Shown here in pieces: positions 19,347 to 24,252 of a stretch of 30,258 nucleotides of DNA. How positions within the stretch are numbered: the stretch's first letter is position 1; every line of letters begins with the position of its first letter. A program made the translations under genes and the position numbers. Under the pieces are notes generated by a model. That model ran no database searches. It was given only the letters and a program-made list of their open reading frames with translations, and was not told the origin of the DNA. This DNA is from Candidatus Thorarchaeota archaeon (lineage in GTDB: Archaea; Asgardarchaeota; Thorarchaeia; Thorarchaeales; Thorarchaeaceae): positions 1-30,258 of the forward strand of contig JAOUFI010000024.1 in NCBI GenBank assembly GCA_029858305.1, read 5' to 3'.

Positions 19347-19649
19347 CTATATCATGACTGAGAGTTTCTCAAGGATAATCTCCTTGGTGATACCCCTTAC
19401 AAGCAGAATCTTCTCTCGGTTCTTATGACCTGATACCAATGTAATTGCACTGGTTGTGATGTCAAGTTCTCTGGCCATCTTCTTGATGAGTTCGGTGTTC
19501 GCCTTCCCTTCACGAGCGGGTCCTGTTAGATTCAAGTGTATAAACTCGGGAGTTCTCTCTGATATGAACTCCTTCGATTTTGAGTTTGGTTTCACAATTA
19601 CTCTTATGAAAACCCCTCTCTCGCTCTCCCAAACAGATTTTGTGCTCAT
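19347..19649 (-). CDS. DUF167 (UPF0235/YggU) family protein
   Basis: 'IRVIVKPNSK', 'GPAREGKANTELIK', 'LVSGHKNREK'; start trimmed to ATG 19649 (19661 is an alternative). Confidence 0.9.
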   Translation of the reverse strand: MSTKSVWESERGVFIRVIVKPNSKSKEFISERTPEFIHLNLTGPAREGKANTELIKKMARELDITTSAITLVSGHKNREKILLVRGITKEIILEKLSVMI

Positions 19650-19779
19650 GGCTATAGCCATATCACTTGTTTCCATAATAGTGTTATCAGATTGTCCAAG
19701 GGAGCTATCAAGGATTTGTTTATTTGCGAAAGTTTCGGGGAACATCATAAGACCGTATGTTCAACGGGGTGAATTCATA

Positions 19780-20160
19780 ATGAGCGATCCTGTAATGGAT
19801 GCATATACAATGGCATATAATAGTTCAGGGAATATGGTACAAGCCTTTGGTGTAATTACTGAAACAGGGCAAGTCCTATGGCAGAGCAATAACTGGGATT
19901 TAACCGCTGATGCCAGTGGTCTTATCTCCGCAGTAAAATCGCGCAGTCCTGCAGTCACACAGAATAACATTCGCTACTCCACAATGAGGTCTACTCCTGA
20001 GAGCCTAGTTGCTCGCAATGTTCAGGGGAATGGAATTCTAATCCTGGCAAAGATTGAAGATCAGAAATGGGTCGTTGCTTGGAGTGCGCCAGACGCTCAG
20101 CCTGATGGTGTCTATGTCGATGTCGATCGAGCAGCTAAGACCCTGAAGGGAAGAATCTGA
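19780..20160 (+). CDS. Asgard archaeal profilin (copy 1)
   Basis: 126 aa from ATG 19780 with a strong GGGGTGA RBS at 19766-19772; 'QAFGVI...LWQSNNWDL...IRY...ARNVQGNGILIL...VAW..P...VDRAAKTL' matches the pattern I recall for Asgard profilins (Q[TS]xNW motif). Confidence 0.85.
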   Translation: MSDPVMDAYTMAYNSSGNMVQAFGVITETGQVLWQSNNWDLTADASGLISAVKSRSPAVTQNNIRYSTMRSTPESLVARNVQGNGILILAKIEDQKWVVAWSAPDAQPDGVYVDVDRAAKTLKGRI

Positions 20161-20235
20161 GTACATTATAATGCGAATAACTCTGTGTAATTCTCCAAAG
20201 GGATAATCGATCATCTTCGCTGAGGAGGGCTTTAC

Positions 20236-20610
20236 TTGGAATCTGCTATCAGTCGACAGTGGTATCAACTCTACGAGAATAATCCAAAGATACAGGCTTT
20301 TGCCATAGCAAAAGGAGAAGAAATCATCTGGCAGACTGAGAACTGGAATCTCCTAGAAGATATTAAGCAAATAGTGGCAGCTCCCAAGGAAGCCACAAGT
20401 AATGTTTCAGCCTTTGGAGTGAAGTACAAGAAAGTCACCTCCAGTCCTGATACCTATATTGGTAGTGCTGCCAATAAGGGTCATCTGTTGATTGTTAGGA
20501 TTAATGAAAAAGGCTGGGCTATTGCATGGGCAGATCCCACATCGGTTCCTGAATTAGCCCTCATTGATCTCACAAAAGCTGCTGTCCATCTAAGCCGTGA
20601 CATTAGATAA
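20236..20610 (+). CDS. Profilin-like protein (copy 2, divergent paralogue)
   Basis: 124 aa, TTG start after GAGGAGGG; 'QAFAI...IWQTENWNL...GVKY...IG....KGHLLI...IAWADP...IDL.KAA' aligns end to end with copy 1. Confidence 0.8.
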   Translation: MESAISRQWYQLYENNPKIQAFAIAKGEEIIWQTENWNLLEDIKQIVAAPKEATSNVSAFGVKYKKVTSSPDTYIGSAANKGHLLIVRINEKGWAIAWADPTSVPELALIDLTKAAVHLSRDIR

Positions 20611-20735
20611 CCTGAGATGTTCTTTGTGTCTATTGTTGTCAATACCCTTGAACTTGAGTCTGGAAAAAATACTGATTTCTTGAATTAAGTTCTACTTGAA
20701 GGTCAACGTGGAGCTATTGGTTGATGGAGGTTTTC

Positions 20736-21482
20736 TTATTTGATTGGTTCGTTTGGAAATAGAATCTCACGTATCTTCATTATGACTTCGATATATTCCT
20801 TGGATCCTGCTGCGTAATAATCTAACAGAGTGCCATATATTTCCAGAACTTTCTTATCAGCAACATCACCCTTTACAAGCTCAGCAATCCTTGTTCTCCA
20901 AGCTGATTGCATAACAACTTGCTTCGTCATAAGTTCAAGCAATTCCTTATGTTTCTCCTCTGGAATCTTTAAATCAAAGGACTGAAGCATCGTTTCAACT
21001 AATGGTCCCATCTTCTTTGAGATTGTCACGCCACCGCCTGTCCATTCGCCTTTGGTCAATACAAATCCCATTGCTGTGCGTCGCCAATAATCCGTGGTTC
21101 GCTTTCCCGTGGTCACTGTTCCATATTTGATGACATATCCGCCCTTTTCCAGTGTGGGGAGATGGTGGTAAACCTGGTTCTTTGAAATCTCGATATCAGG
21201 ACCACAACACTCTGTGGATAGTTTCACTATCTCAATAACGCTAAGAGCATTACGTTTAACATCTCTCACCCGTATGATTTTGTCCCCATTTTCATCCACA
21301 CTCTCAGTGGTCAGCGTATCATCTATACCCTCTCTCAAAACCTGCAAAATATGATATCTCACGGGTTCGTCTAAAATAGTTGCTCGCTCATCATCAGTAA
21401 TGAATACGATTTCTCGTTGTGGCTTTTTTCCATCATCGGTTAGCACAATTCCCTTCAGGCTGTCTGTGATCTCATCGCCCAT
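20736..21482 (-). CDS. Winged-helix (ArsR/HTH_20-like) transcriptional regulator with helical C-terminal domain
   Basis: 'ILDEPVRYHILQVL', 'LSVIEIV', 'SKNQVYHHLPTLEKGGYV', wing 'KRTTDYWRRTA'; start set at ATG 21482 after GGTGA. Confidence 0.8.
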   Translation of the reverse strand: MGDEITDSLKGIVLTDDGKKPQREIVFITDDERATILDEPVRYHILQVLREGIDDTLTTESVDENGDKIIRVRDVKRNALSVIEIVKLSTECCGPDIEISKNQVYHHLPTLEKGGYVIKYGTVTTGKRTTDYWRRTAMGFVLTKGEWTGGGVTISKKMGPLVETMLQSFDLKIPEEKHKELLELMTKQVVMQSAWRTRIAELVKGDVADKKVLEIYGTLLDYYAAGSKEYIEVIMKIREILFPNEPIK

Positions 21483-21514
21483 CTGTTTGTTCACCAATGT
21501 ATTTTGTTATCCAA

Positions 21515-21534
21515 GTCATTTCACATGAAATGAC
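21515..21534. promoter_or_regulatory. Perfect 9-2-9 inverted repeat upstream of the regulator
   Basis: GTCATTTCA-CA-TGAAATGAC. Confidence 0.55.
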
Positions 21535-21601
21535 GCCTTTGCGCCAACAGGTCCCTCTCGGGTCAAAACATGCCCTGGCTTGATTTTATTTAGCAATATT
21601 G

Positions 21602-21728
21602 AGCATTTAAAACTATTGGTAAATGCTTATGAATAAAACCATTTGTTCGACAAACGATTGTGTTTAATGCGTAATATAATTGTTTGGAAATACAATGGTT
21701 TGGTAAACAATGGTTTGTGCCACAAACC
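21602..21728. promoter_or_regulatory. Operator-like array of six CAATGGTTT-like boxes (three inverted, three direct) in a divergent promoter
   Basis: Direct: TAATTGTTTG 21677-86, CAATGGTTTG 21693-702, CAATGGTTTG 21708-17. Inverted: AAACTATTG 21610-18, AAACCATTTG 21636-45, CAAACGATTG 21651-60. Also palindrome GGTTTGTG-C-CACAAACC 21712-28. Confidence 0.65.
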
Positions 21729-21734
21729 TTATAT
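21729..21734 (+). promoter_or_regulatory. Putative TATA box for the micro-ORF cluster
   Basis: TTATAT preceded by an A-rich CAAA (BRE-like), about 35 nt upstream of ATG 21768. Confidence 0.4.
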
Positions 21735-21767
21735 GCAATTGTACCATTCATATGGGTGTGAAATACA

Positions 21768-21875
21768 ATGAATCGCGGAATGAACACACAAACTTACTAT
21801 GGAACACAGAACGAGAAGATGGCTCGAGTCTACACACTTGATGCCATTGGATATGCTTACATCTACAGGAGGTAG
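21768..21875 (+). CDS. Small peptide A (35 aa) MNRGMNTQTYYGTQNEKMARVYTLDAIGYAYIYRR
   Basis: Hand-translated; ATG preceded by GGGTGTGA; C-terminus paralogous to peptide B. Confidence 0.6.
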   Translation: MNRGMNTQTYYGTQNEKMARVYTLDAIGYAYIYRR

Positions 21876-21880
21876 AAAAT

Positions 21881-21970
21881 ATGGCACTTGCGAAATCAGT
21901 CAAGAGAAGATATGAGCCCAGGAAGCCGATCTCCACAGACGCAATCACCCACTCATACATGTACAGGTAG
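21881..21970 (+). CDS. Small peptide B (29 aa) MALAKSVKRRYEPRKPISTDAITHSYMYR
   Basis: Hand-translated; strong RBS AGGAGGT at 21867-21873, 7 nt before the ATG; shares DAI...Y.YR C-terminus with peptide A. Confidence 0.65.
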   Translation: MALAKSVKRRYEPRKPISTDAITHSYMYR

Positions 21971-22093
21971 ATGAGAATGAAACTAGAATACAGTGACATT
22001 CAGTCTGACCGTGGTCATGAGAAACTCTCAGTGGAAGCTTCCAAACAAACAACTGTAACTATTGATGAAGTACTCTTGTGGGATGCCACATGA
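21971..22093 (+). CDS. Small peptide C (40 aa) MRMKLEYSDIQSDRGHEKLSVEASKQTTVTIDEVLLWDAT
   Basis: Hand-translated; begins immediately after the TAG of B (second ATG 21977 is well spaced from AGGT); ends just before a hairpin/T-tract. Confidence 0.5.
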   Translation: MRMKLEYSDIQSDRGHEKLSVEASKQTTVTIDEVLLWDAT

Positions 22094-22113
22094 GTGCTTC
22101 GCACACTTTTTCT
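22094..22113 (+). terminator. Putative terminator of the micro-ORF cluster
   Basis: GTGC-TTC-GCAC mini-hairpin followed by CTTTTTCT; a further T6 tract at 22141-22146. Confidence 0.45.
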
Positions 22114-22152
22114 AAAATTTATTTCAGATTCTCCAACTCGTTTTTTCATTGC

Positions 22153-22962
22153 TCACTTTGAGAATACCATTTGGTAAAATGTATCATTCATCACGTAACT
22201 GACCTCTACGTTACGAGCCTTTTCAGGGAGAAATTCTAGGGGCGGACGCGCTGCGAATAATGAGTTTGCCTTTATGATCTCTTTTCCCTTATCCGAGTCT
22301 CTCATGCGTGGAGATAGTCCTTCATCTATTACAATTACTTCTCCCCCTGCTCGAACTATCCTGAGCATCTCACTTAGGGCTCCATGGATATCAGAGAAAG
22401 TATTGACGCCGCCTGTGTGGAGAACGATATCAAAGAAACTGCTCTGATACGGGATGTTGAATACATTACCGTGAGTTAGGCTAACATCAATTCCCAAGTC
22501 TACAATTTTCCTTTTAGCTACCTTCAACATTCCGGTTGATAGATCCATCCCATGAAGGTTGAACCTGCCCATTTGGTTCTTGAAATTGCTATGTAGAGCT
22601 ACGAAATTTGCGGCTGTACCTATACTCACATCGATAATTCTCGAAGGGCCTTCGATAGGCAAAAAAGTCGTGAATCGTTCTCGCTCCTTCATCATGTCGA
22701 TTTCAAGCCAATCATCATATTGCTTGACCAACTCATCATACGCTTCTGCCATATCATCGTACTCTTTGATCCACTTGGCATCTTTCTCATTTATCGTAGG
22801 ATAGACCAGAGACGGAATGCCATCAATAATGGACCAGCTATGCCCTCGTTCGCAAACGATTTGACCAGTTTCAATGCTCTCAGTTGGTAAAATTTCTCTA
22901 TTGAATTTAAGCCTCTTTCCACACTCTGGACATTTGAGAGAGGCTAGATGAGGGCCTTTCAT
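22153..22962 (-). CDS. Class I SAM-dependent methyltransferase (UbiE-like) with N-terminal Trm112-like zinc ribbon
   Basis: 'CPECG...IVCERGHSWSIIDGIPSL' Trm112/RlmA-like N-terminus; 'IIDVSIGTA', 'GMDLSTGML', 'FFDIV', 'ALSEMLRIVRAGG'; start set to ATG 22962 after AGGAG. Confidence 0.85.
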   Translation of the reverse strand: MKGPHLASLKCPECGKRLKFNREILPTESIETGQIVCERGHSWSIIDGIPSLVYPTINEKDAKWIKEYDDMAEAYDELVKQYDDWLEIDMMKERERFTTFLPIEGPSRIIDVSIGTAANFVALHSNFKNQMGRFNLHGMDLSTGMLKVAKRKIVDLGIDVSLTHGNVFNIPYQSSFFDIVLHTGGVNTFSDIHGALSEMLRIVRAGGEVIVIDEGLSPRMRDSDKGKEIIKANSLFAARPPLEFLPEKARNVEVSYVMNDTFYQMVFSK

Positions 22963-23046
22963 CGATTCATTGCTCCTACTATCTATCAATATTATCGGTT
23001 AAAATATGAATCGAATGGGATATCAAAGGTCGTAGGATATGTAAGC

Positions 23047-23886
23047 CTACAACATCTTATTTTGGATGATTGTTTCCACAGTCGAAATGACAGTCTTGAC
23101 AACGTGCCATTGGATGAAGACTACAAGTTGGCTTCGGATATGTAGAGACCATGGCTGCGTAGTATCATCTCCTGGCATAAACACACCAATGCTCTCGCGC
23201 CCATCAATATTCAGAATAAGAATACGTGTTGGTTCCCAGTCATCTTGAGATAGCATGGGTGTCTGAAAAAGCTCCTTGAAACTCTCCATTAGCAGTTCCT
23301 TACTAGGCATAGCTATGCGTACTGTGAGATACCGATCTAGCCCTGTAACTTCTATGGACCCGGGTGTTGTTGTGATAAGTTCAATTTTCACCCCACGATT
23401 TTTCGCAGAACTGAATGCACCCCTAAGGTGGCTTAAGAGAACAGGAGAAGCAGATGCAATATACACATAATCTTGAGCATTTTCGATTGCAGCTCTCATG
23501 CCCATAATGACTTGCTCCATACCTTGTACTGCCCACGCAAATTCCTTGGCTTCGGTTCCTCTTAGTGCTTGAAGTCCTTTCAAGACCTTTCGAGCACTAG
23601 TCGCTGAGCTAGTGACCTTCTCCTCAAGGTGGTCTAGCGCTGCATCCACAGGAGCTGGGTCAAATTCAGTAGGATCAGTCCCCGGAGTCTTTTTGATTAT
23701 ACCTCTCTTTTCCAGAAGTTCCAGAGTCTCATACACCTTGCTTCTGGGAATCCCAGAGTCTTCTGCAATGATTCGTGCAGTTGATCTGCCAAGCTTGACT
23801 AAAGTATGATATGCCTTGGCCTCGTTCTTTGTGAGACCAATACTGGTCAAATCATCAACAATTGTACTCTGCGCCAAAATGACCAC
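23047..23886 (-). CDS. TrmB-family transcriptional regulator
   Basis: 'IGLTKNEAKAY...TARIIAEDSGIPRSKVYETLELLEKRGII' TrmB HTH; coiled-coil linker; PLD-like effector domain 'IENAQDYVYI...AKNRGVKIELI...LNIDGRE'. Confidence 0.92.
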   Translation of the reverse strand: MVILAQSTIVDDLTSIGLTKNEAKAYHTLVKLGRSTARIIAEDSGIPRSKVYETLELLEKRGIIKKTPGTDPTEFDPAPVDAALDHLEEKVTSSATSARKVLKGLQALRGTEAKEFAWAVQGMEQVIMGMRAAIENAQDYVYIASASPVLLSHLRGAFSSAKNRGVKIELITTTPGSIEVTGLDRYLTVRIAMPSKELLMESFKELFQTPMLSQDDWEPTRILILNIDGRESIGVFMPGDDTTQPWSLHIRSQLVVFIQWHVVKTVISTVETIIQNKML

Positions 23887-23905
23887 AGATATTCTATAGA
23901 AGATG

Positions 23906-23941
23906 ATGATTTTAAAATCATTGTCACTTTTGGAGTGACAA
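23906..23941. promoter_or_regulatory. trmB promoter: palindromic TATA region plus TGTCAC-N7-GTGACA operator
   Basis: ATGATTTTAAAATCAT (perfect 16-bp palindrome, 23906-21) abutting TTGTCACT-TTTGG-AGTGACAA (23921-41). Confidence 0.65.
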
Positions 23942-23949
23942 GTGCCCGT

Positions 23950-24252
23950 CTACTCGGTATCGATGTTTTCGCCTTCCATGATCCTCTCAATTTCAATCAG
24001 TCTATTTACAACAGCAATCCCCTTATCTGTCAAAGATATGTAGTGACTTTCGTTTTCTCCTACGAACCGGAAGACAAGACCATCTTCGAGCAATCTATCT
24101 CGAATATCGTTGAATATGTCTTTATTACTGAATTTACACACTAAATCTTTCTCAAAGCGGTCTCCCCAGATTAGTTCTGATAGAACCTCTCGTACTTCCC
24201 TACTCGCAAGAAATTCCAAGGTCATGATATCCATCAACAAGGCAGAGAACAT
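23950..24252 (-). CDS. Small winged-helix DNA-binding protein
   Basis: 100 aa; 'IRDRLLEDGLV...YISLTDKGIAVVNRL' helix-wing-LTxKG pattern typical of wHTH proteins; start may be the second Met. Confidence 0.65.
   Translation of the reverse strand: MFSALLMDIMTLEFLASREVREVLSELIWGDRFEKDLVCKFSNKDIFNDIRDRLLEDGLVFRFVGENESHYISLTDKGIAVVNRLIEIERIMEGENIDTE

Follow-up and report, generated by a model that had tools for sequence, protein, structure and literature searches.

A regulator-linked locus of Thorarchaeota encoding two predicted families of micro-proteins

Introduction

Short peptide genes without a classical signal peptide that lie beside, and are often divergent from, the gene of a helix-turn-helix (HTH) regulator characterise the Rgg/SHP and ComR/ComS systems (RRNPP type) of Gram-positive bacteria, in which the function of the precursor resides in its conserved, aromatic C-terminal portion and re-import depends on an oligopeptide permease. 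Tandem peptides of ~30 amino acids (aa), which are cationic, aromatic-rich and helical, make up aureocin A70, a leaderless multi-peptide bacteriocin that is served by a dedicated transporter and for which a regulator is encoded nearby. In Bacillus, the small acid-soluble spore proteins (SASPs) are related to one another and encoded at scattered loci behind a shared promoter. Here, a locus that invites comparison with these systems is described in a 30,258-nt stretch of DNA, hereafter the window, from the Asgard archaeon Candidatus Thorarchaeota archaeon (assembly GCA_029858305.1, contig JAOUFI010000024.1). It consists of three short open reading frames (ORFs), termed A, B and C, located in a 655-nt gap between two - strand genes, one (20736..21497) encoding a winged-helix regulator, termed c6, and the other (22153..22989) an S-adenosylmethionine (SAM) methyltransferase.

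Small proteins are largely missing from archaeal annotation, and Asgard archaea are, of all prokaryotes, those most closely related to eukaryotes. All three ORFs fall below the 60-aa default cut-off of the ORF listing and would therefore go unlisted. Comparative analysis of their sequences indicates that they represent two previously undescribed micro-protein families, which would form a regulator-linked module in a lineage for which none has been described.

Results and Discussion

Conservation and coding potential of A, B and C

A sequence-only reading of the window had proposed three + strand ORFs of 35, 29 and 40 aa, separated by gaps of 5 and 0 nt, and their positions (Table 1) proved to be exactly as claimed. 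The three ORFs are intact in 16/16 orthologous loci of the genus, where they encode 35-36, 28-29 and 37-40 aa, respectively, lie 0-6 nt apart and keep their lengths and starts. The most variable codon position is the third, in the own frame of each ORF. Pooled Nei-Gojobori dN/dS ratios over these 16 loci are 0.29 for A, 0.18 for B and 0.45 for C (dS ~1.1), and the last 14 codons are the most constrained, with ratios of 0.18, 0.12 and 0.33, respectively. The N-part and the N-terminus (MALxxN) are likewise constrained (dN/dS 0.24-0.45). Selection on the peptide had been suggested earlier from a shared D-A-I motif, encoded by GAT GCC ATT in A and GAC GCA ATC in B; these codons are correct, and dN/dS values of 0.18-0.45, lowest in the last 14 codons and not near 1, bear the suggestion out.

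Further copies were sought in the genome that the window comes from, which comprises 3.04 Mb in 205 contigs and is 89% complete. At the DNA level just 52 similar bases were found elsewhere, at 79% identity; the place where they lie, locus C205, displays the same three-ORF layout. The ORFs of the paralogous locus end in ...RVYSTDAITYAYQYRR (A'), ...ISTDAITHAYMYR (B') and ...NEEVLLLEAT (C'). Among the 39,893 small ORFs of the genome, ORF A scores E 6.8e-13 with the family hidden Markov model (HMM). The ORF stretch has a G+C content of 0.40-0.44 and a purine-rich + strand, resembling the surrounding coding DNA, and the 250 nt upstream of it have a G+C content of 0.32-0.35. Scans of the window with Rfam (gathering thresholds) and for tRNAs gave no match. 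An antisense ORF of 83 aa (21748..21999) was rejected as a gene, being unconserved: across the 16 orthologues, the maximum length that stays free of stops on the antisense strand varies between 19 and 114 aa over the three - frames.

In X23, a metatranscriptome run from sediment, there is one 157-nt contig that matches the window with 1 mismatch over 144 nt and covers 21879-22022, corresponding to B and the start of C. The data are contigs and the run was found through this very stretch, so that missing cover of the neighbours (20000-24000) is uninformative; DNA carry-over is possible, and the contig is a weak hint of expression. Contigs, moreover, carry no information on strand, and run shares below 0.2 were given no weight as to habitat. 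The genomes compared are kin, and counts across them are therefore not counts of independent events; independent evidence is provided by two paralogous A-B-C loci, the five locus types described below and several genera. From this comparative evidence, A, B and C are almost certainly real protein-coding micro-genes.

Sequence and distribution of the two peptide families

A and B belong to one family, termed AB, with the consensus MAL(A/T)(K/T)N, a variable middle, and then (I/V)ST(D/E)A(I/L)x(Y/H)(A/S)YxYR(R). Its 111 unique members display a median length of 33 aa and a median net charge of +5; they are hydrophilic, rich in N, T, K, R and S, and without Cys. The own genome contains 13 AB members by profile search (E<=0.01, among the small ORFs) plus one more recognised by eye, which are distributed over six loci (C155, which is the window, C205, C50, C119, C32 and C62) and are for the most part arranged in tandem. 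The family is present in 24/24 other genomes of the genus and, in a 400-genome sample of the phylum, in 75/85 genomes of the same taxonomic family compared with 0/314 of other families. Six of the 10 genomes negative by HMM were inspected, and all six carry a divergent or GTG-start member beside c6.

The C peptides, in contrast, have a median length of 38 aa, a net charge of -3 and the C-terminal end (T/S)x(E/K)(E/D)VL(L/M)(W/L)E(A/P)T, in short form EEVL(L/M)WEAT. The corresponding HMM recovered 42 ORFs (38 unique sequences) from several genera (68 loci, L047-L114). C belongs to a separate anionic family and is no diverged copy of A or B. Its TVTIDEV segment had been read as a weaker echo of the A/B motif, a reading that fails on its own conserved C-terminus and opposite charge. 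The broader proposal, that the small peptides are one family in which the N-termini vary around a conserved core at the C-terminus, holds for A and B, on the strength of paralogues, orthologues and dN/dS, and leaves out C. Among the genomes searched, both families are restricted to one taxonomic family of Thorarchaeota.

No Pfam-A or NCBIfam family was matched at E up to 10 by A, B, C or their paralogues (two with Pfam-A, one with NCBIfam), and the ESM Atlas gave no usable match. A profile search of a library of 1.84 billion representative proteins, which carries no names or annotation, returned 53 matches at E<=0.001, almost all of 28-43 aa. Of 20 such representatives retrieved, 19 are family members of 29-90 aa, including read-through forms. 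A search for homologous proteins with C alone (22-70 aa) found only the window's own protein, and none of nine pattern matches in viral contigs was confirmed. The family motifs are absent from the literature searched, which did not extend to small-ORF tables in paper supplements, and nothing in print was found on such families in Asgard archaea, including passages of PMC12144867. The earlier statement that no described family matches these peptides is therefore in agreement with Pfam, NCBIfam and the literature.

In eight retrieved entries of 69-90 aa, B runs on into C, with Q standing in for every stop codon, and two of them extend beyond the stop of C; the fused entries are P0005, P0011, P0012, P0028, P0032, P0036, P0039 and P0049. 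They are most likely a gene-calling artefact, produced by a genetic code in which TAG/TAA stand for Gln. The possibility that B is joined to C by programmed TAG read-through or by pyrrolysine insertion was considered, since B always ends in TAG and is in frame with C in 15/16 orthologues. It was rejected because TAG makes up 36% of the stops of 1,079 long ORFs, C is out of frame in the orthologue L040, no PylS was found in the genome (best score 19.3 bits versus a cut-off of 178) and the Q-containing fusions, of 59-90 aa in the public library, look artefactual.

Three assignments to known classes were also considered and rejected. The N-terminus resembles that of ribosomal protein eL29 (MAxSKN...); the peptides match no Pfam family at E up to 10, are multi-copy and occur in one taxonomic family. 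The HbYX motif of proteasome activators comprises a hydrophobic residue, Tyr and any residue at the extreme C-terminus; only B-type peptides end in x-Y-R, with x being M, T, L, K or R, and most members end in Y-R-R. The toxins of type I toxin-antitoxin systems are hydrophobic membrane-spanning peptides, and the present peptides have no hydrophobic stretch and a median net charge of +5.

Transcription and translation signals

The TATA-like box, the ribosome-binding strings and the hairpin with a T-run that the sequence-only reading had located around the ORFs are all present as described, with AGGT at 21965-21968 in addition to the elements in Table 1. The box, CAAAC(C/T)TTATAT, which we take to be an archaeal B recognition element (BRE) and TATA element, is invariant in 16 aligned orthologous upstream regions. 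The window's box is found in 25/47 c6-adjacent loci, all from the window's genus-level group, with only 3 matches in the whole genome. GTGA and AGGT are presumably Shine-Dalgarno (SD)-like sites; a GTGA core 8-12 nt upstream of the ATG is kept in the 16 orthologues and at other locus types. A T-run of at least five lies within ~30 nt of the C stop in 15/16 orthologues, L015 having just TTT. The BRE/TATA-like box, the SD-like sites, the starts placed 0-6 nt after the preceding stop and the T-tract terminator indicate that A, B and C form one transcription unit. The first ATG of C is only 2 nt downstream of AGGT; the most likely start on sequence comparison is the ATG at 21977, which in the alignment coincides with the position where the other 14 orthologues begin and has normal spacing after AGGT.

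Table 1. Positions of the ORFs, neighbouring genes and signals of the A-B-C locus in the window
Feature	Position	Strand	Description
c6	20736..21482	-	248 aa from ATG 21482 (TTG 21497 also open); PH1932/ArsR-like winged-helix regulator
O1 inverted repeat	21712..21728		GGTTTGTG-C-CACAAACC; 8-nt arms, 100% complementary; abuts TATA-like box
BRE/TATA-like box	21723..21734	+	CAAACCTTATAT; ~34-45 nt upstream of A start codon
SD-like site of A	21754..21761	+	GGGTGTGA; precedes A
ORF A	21768..21875	+	35 aa; cationic AB-family member; ends ...RVYTLDAIGYAYIYRR
AGGAGGT	21867..21873	+	Last two Arg codons of A and first stop base; doubles as SD-like site of B
ORF B	21881..21970	+	29 aa; cationic AB-family member; ends ...ISTDAITHSYMYR
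ORF C	21971..22093	+	40 aa from first ATG, 38 aa from 21977; anionic; ends ...TIDEVLLWDAT
Terminator-like element	22094..22111	+	Hairpin GTGC-TTC-GCAC, then TTTTT
SAM methyltransferase	22153..22989	-	Pfam Methyltransf_11, E 1.9e-13; convergent with the operon

The C-terminal codons of the AB family serve in two capacities. The final Arg codon of 112 unique family ORFs is nearly always AGG, followed by TAA or TAG, although in 1,079 long ORFs of the genome AGG accounts for just 13% of the codons for Arg. The last three codons of B-type ORFs are TAC AGG TAG in 28/28 cases, and the next start lies 0-12 nt after the stop in most members. Part of the C-terminal conservation is thus at the nucleotide level, because the final Arg codon or codons together with the stop form the SD-like site of the next ORF. 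In the 11 cases without a following ORF, RR is nevertheless retained, four times with a last codon other than AGG, which argues that the peptide itself is also under selection. The earlier attribution of the C-terminal conservation to peptide selection therefore holds in part.

The regulator c6 and the candidate operator O1

The regulator shows a weak Pfam match to HTH_20 (E 0.0029), and its profile matches, over c6 positions 101-241, the sequence of PH1932 from Pyrococcus horikoshii (PDB code 1ULY; E 1.8e-9) with an identity of ~20%; PH1932, a DNA-binding homologue of ArsR, is the closest relative of c6 that is known. The AlphaFold2 (AF2) model of c6 has a mean predicted local distance difference test (pLDDT) value of 81.7. 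Foldseek comparison with this model revealed 1uly and 2cwe as the closest structures (E 6e-8, probability 1.00, template modelling (TM) scores 0.48/0.59), followed by PadR and LmrR. Both c6 and PH1932 comprise a winged helix and a helical C-terminal domain, and c6 differs by an additional N-terminal segment and a long β-hairpin at residues 53-77 of the model. PH1932 is not known to have a small-peptide partner. Within the taxonomic family, 78/85 genomes have a strong c6 orthologue. Outside it, in the 314 genomes of other families, strong matches occur in 2/19 genomes of one family and only weak ones (E 1e-6 to 1e-9) in 24 genomes of six further families.

Inspection of 48 c6 loci (the best 30 plus 18 chosen by hand), of which one is a duplicate, leaving 47 distinct loci, revealed a peptide divergently upstream of c6 in 45/47 (40 by HMM and five by eye). 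Of the two loci without a peptide, one is cut by a contig end and the other, L102 (labelled Hermodarchaeota), has none. The O1 inverted repeat of the shared intergenic region follows the pattern RGTTKG-N4-6-YAAAC, which is present in 40/47 c6-upstream regions (39/46 distinct), including that of the peptide-less L102, and in 0/19 loci away from c6; chance would yield, by a rough estimate, fewer than about 0.01 occurrences per region. A scan for promoters and terminators of the sigma-70 type, which is unsuited to an archaeon, re-found the O1 palindrome as 'terminator-like' on the - strand. The location of O1 in the shared intergenic region, its confinement to c6 loci and, in the window's genus, its position beside the TATA box point to c6 as the probable O1 binder. 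The window locus is probably ancestral, with c6 binding O1 and controlling the operon, and probably itself as well, and with the paralogous loci using a different, very conserved cassette whose operator is termed O2. A predicted complex of two copies of c6 with peptide A scored 0.01 against a mark of 0.32, a value obtained without controls and neutral on binding.

A perfect 9-nt inverted repeat, GTCATTTCA-CA-TGAAATGAC, lies at 21515-21534, just upstream of the c6 start; L040, the closest relative, is alone in retaining it, and there the spacer is longer. Two paralogues of c6 are encoded in the same genome at C35:2142-2870 (-) and C198:20782-21459 (-), with 38% and 29% identity, respectively. 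The C35 paralogue has no family peptide within 900 nt upstream, the C198 paralogue no HMM-detected peptide in the 4.6 kb examined, and both are absent from the genome-wide lists of O1 and O2 matches.

Locus types, the O2 cassette and transporter genes

The neighbourhoods of the peptide genes were compared by BLASTP clustering of ORFs of at least 70 aa in 25 regions of ~20 kb, with selected recurring clusters annotated by eye or with Pfam. Five locus types were defined on this basis. The window type comprises an OPT oligopeptide transporter (Pfam OPT, E 8.4e-28), syntenic in 6/6 window-type regions, two profilin-like genes, c6 and, divergently, the peptides. This type is found in three genera, including two sampled genomes with a single detectable copy (L047 and L049), the neighbours of which differ apart from c6. 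The tandem profilin-like ORFs, at 19456-20160 and 20236-20610 (+), lie between OPT and c6 in all six regions; the first matches Pfam Profilin at E 0.0036, below the cut-off, and is probably shorter than the listed 234 aa, the second has no match, and both co-cluster by BLASTP.

The paralogous loci are preceded by a ~90-nt cassette composed of the palindrome GTCACA-N3-TGTGAC (O2), a further TGTGAC half-site, GTGGCTTCGCTATATATA and, before the ATG, CTTGTGAA. Three cassettes of the own genome (C205:96906-97002, C119:34812-34904 and C50:8563-8653) are 98-100% identical over 91-97 nt. The cassette is kept across genera and is more conserved than the coding parts. The O2 palindrome occurs in 17/19 loci away from c6 and in 0/47 c6 loci. 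The earlier description of the peptides as a regulated family accords with these conserved promoters and their palindromic operators.

In two independent locus types the peptide arrays are followed by major facilitator superfamily (MFS) transporter genes on the same strand. One of these, c9, begins at a median distance of 6 nt and matches MFS_1 (E 7.6e-38) and MFS_3, 'transmembrane secretion effector' (E 1.4e-28); the other, c37, was seen twice, with MFS_1 E values of 1.9e-12 and 2.4e-14. In the own genome MFS genes lie downstream of 2/6 loci (C119 and C62), and the genome has 39 MFS_1 matches, corresponding to ~30 genes by count. Recurrence at non-orthologous loci was seen for clusters of an ABC ATPase and of MFS transporters, and c6 is the sole universal neighbour; the ABC ATPase family, the only one common to the own-genome loci, was treated as a chance occurrence. 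No radical-SAM, YcaO, lanthionine-synthetase-like or peptidase cluster recurs at the loci among the annotated recurring clusters of the 25 regions.

Three loci of the own genome display individual features. At C62:10347-11140 both promoter types are found in a space of 700 nt: first a class-2 cassette, which precedes three family peptides and an unrelated 42-aa ORF, and next an O1-like GGTTTG-N5-CAAAC with a TATA box before a 36-38-aa ORF of no family. The same locus holds a possible decayed member (...VSTYAYTG), and its MFS gene is at ~11460. At C101:38916-39010 a TATA box and an operator resembling O2 (GTAACA-N3-TGTGAC with an additional TGTGAC) are found upstream of a long ORF that starts near 39005, the repeats of which look β-helical (bactofilin-like) by eye and which may belong to the regulon. 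A 37-aa ORF of neither family (MMKLTNNSIIL...; C119:34342-34455, -) lies between the second and third peptides of the C119 array.

Predicted peptide structure and possible functions

Modelling of ORF A by AF2 with the family alignment yields a helix at residues 8-33 with a mean pLDDT of 68, which is moderate; block means are 84 for residues 21-30 and 80 for residues 31-35. A and B are predicted to carry a C-terminal amphipathic aromatic helix, ST(D/E)A(I/L)x(Y/H)AYxYR(R). As we read the alignment, the conserved I/L, Y, Y, Y and A would occupy one broad face of this helix, with two variable positions opposite.

It is tentatively proposed, as a reading with somewhat less than even chances, that A and B are leaderless exported peptides acting between cells under c6 control. 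They would be unmodified or lightly modified cationic helical peptides, would leave the cell via the MFS transporters encoded directly downstream of the paralogous arrays and would serve other cells as a signal or affect them as an antagonist. The anionic C, expressed together with A and B, would be their partner or would neutralise them, and the OPT transporter syntenic with the regulator could offer a route of re-import. The cationic helical character of the peptides, their tandem diversification and tight regulation, the co-encoded anionic peptide, the MFS genes in operon at paralogous loci and the syntenic OPT importer together suggest export. A number of observations weigh against it. The peptides are hydrophilic, and neither a signal peptide nor a double-glycine leader nor any hydrophobic stretch is present; the operons of the window and C205 type contain no transporter, a terminator following C. 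The C-terminus is conserved while the N-terminal and middle parts vary, although the active part of a pheromone or antagonist would be expected to vary. MFS genes are common (~1% of genes), their arrangements with peptide arrays represent just two independent events, each inherited by many genomes, and such adjacency would be expected just as much of a leader peptide or of a small protein that regulates the transporter. The case for c6 binding to O1, moreover, consists of position and conservation. A complete Thorarchaeota peptide signalling circuit, with A and B diversified into as many as about a dozen variants per genome, exported by dedicated MFS proteins, re-imported by OPT and sensed by c6 as a receptor that switches the O1 (perhaps also the O2) promoters, and with C buffering A and B inside the cell, is unlikely as a whole.

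Four other explanations were weighed. The strongest constraint in the last 14 codons, the moderate-confidence helix at residues 8-33 with its variable positions on one face, the opposite net charges of A/B and C, the near-universal pairing with c6 and the lack of a visible export signal would suit intracellular docking micro-proteins, in which the C-terminal helices of A and B (and C) bind a conserved cellular protein and the N-terminal half tunes affinity or stability. Candidate partners would be c6, with the peptides acting as anti-repressors or co-repressors in a loop, a membrane protein such as an MFS transporter, or, for A and B, C itself. This explanation, the main rival, is somewhat less likely than export: docking predicts neither the tandem multi-copy expansion nor the operon linkage to MFS genes. 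The motif is no shared docking tag, as larger proteins with either C-terminal motif are lacking in the genome (0/4,550 stop-free stretches of at least 100 aa). In bacterial peptides, cross-links between Tyr and Arg, and others involving aromatic residues, are made by radical-SAM enzymes, and the Tyr/Arg-rich C-terminus (YAYxYRR) could be the core of a ribosomally synthesised and post-translationally modified peptide (RiPP), modified by an enzyme encoded elsewhere in the genome, much as a single distant enzyme can serve a multi-copy precursor family. RiPP-like precursors, signalling peptides and small protein-binding inhibitors had been the candidate functions of the sequence-only reading. Short, multi-copy, tandem ORFs with an aromatic conserved C-terminus fit a RiPP precursor, as do the transporter genes adjoining two locus types. 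The proposal is weakened, to the point of being improbable, because neither a modifying-enzyme nor a peptidase cluster recurs beside the loci in the comparison above; moreover, the sole universal neighbour is a winged-helix protein, the single-copy genomes share no other neighbour, and the peptides are without Cys.

Conservation concentrated right before the stop, with the next start within 0-12 nt in most members and, in one locus type, ~6 nt between the last peptide stop and the MFS start, is also what cis-acting leader or ribosome-arrest peptides would show, the residues before the stop stalling the ribosome and thereby controlling the next ORF or transporter gene. A leader shares its transcript with the gene that it controls and precedes it there, an arrangement absent from the window and found only at the MFS-linked paralogous loci. 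The operons of the window and C205 type end in a T-tract and a convergent gene, leaving nothing downstream to control, which makes this explanation very improbable; in addition, the N-terminus is also constrained and RR is kept where no ORF follows. Partly nucleotide-level conservation, exemplified by the invariant B-type ends, and promoter cassettes more conserved than the coding parts could finally be taken to indicate a non-coding RNA or regulatory DNA that is open in three frames by chance. The own-frame variability of third positions, the low dN/dS at near-saturated dS, the lengths and starts kept in all 16 orthologues, paralogues that are alike in protein and barely in DNA, and the lack of an Rfam match leave this view close to refuted by sequence comparison. 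Export of A and B under c6 control is retained as the tentative working model.

The system is lineage-wide, multi-copy and under purifying selection, and combines promoters, two candidate operators and a dedicated regulator. Standard length cut-offs would miss ~15 such genes per Thorarchaeota genome, and some of the database entries that do exist appear to be artefactual read-through fusions. If the peptides are exported signals or antagonists, cell-cell communication or conflict in Asgard archaea would be opened to study, and the signalling circuit, if true, would be the first peptide-based signalling described in Asgard archaea. If they are intracellular docking peptides, a new regulatory module would be defined.

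Comparison with known systems

Like the SASP regulon of Bacillus, the scattered loci of the own genome lie behind nearly identical cassettes (C205, C50 and C119). Unlike SASPs, the products are half the size, have no known link to dormancy and show no sequence relation to them. The tandem, leaderless, cationic, aromatic peptides of ~30 aa, which are predicted to be helical, recall aureocin A70. In contrast with the latter, which is hydrophobic, membrane-active and associated with ABC transporters, the peptides described here are hydrophilic and their C-terminal motif is invariant; the link to MFS genes exists only at some loci, and there is no recognisable immunity gene.

The differences from Rgg/SHP lie in the regulator, the peptides and the host. 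c6 is a PH1932/ArsR/PadR-like winged-helix protein in which no tetratricopeptide repeat (TPR) was seen by Pfam or fold comparison, and the peptides are cationic and hydrophilic, 28-36 aa long, present in 13 copies and accompanied by an anionic third peptide. The host is an Asgard archaeon, in which no processing or export machinery of the Rgg/SHP kind was identified. Since the regulator has no TPR domain and the peptides are unrelated, the system is not a member of the Rgg/SHP group. As in Rgg/SHP and ComR/ComS, however, a peptide gene adjoins the regulator gene at nearly all of the distinct c6 loci and an oligopeptide transporter is syntenic with it, and by analogy it is the Rgg/SHP or ComR/ComS cassettes that the architecture of the Thorarchaeota locus appears to resemble most.

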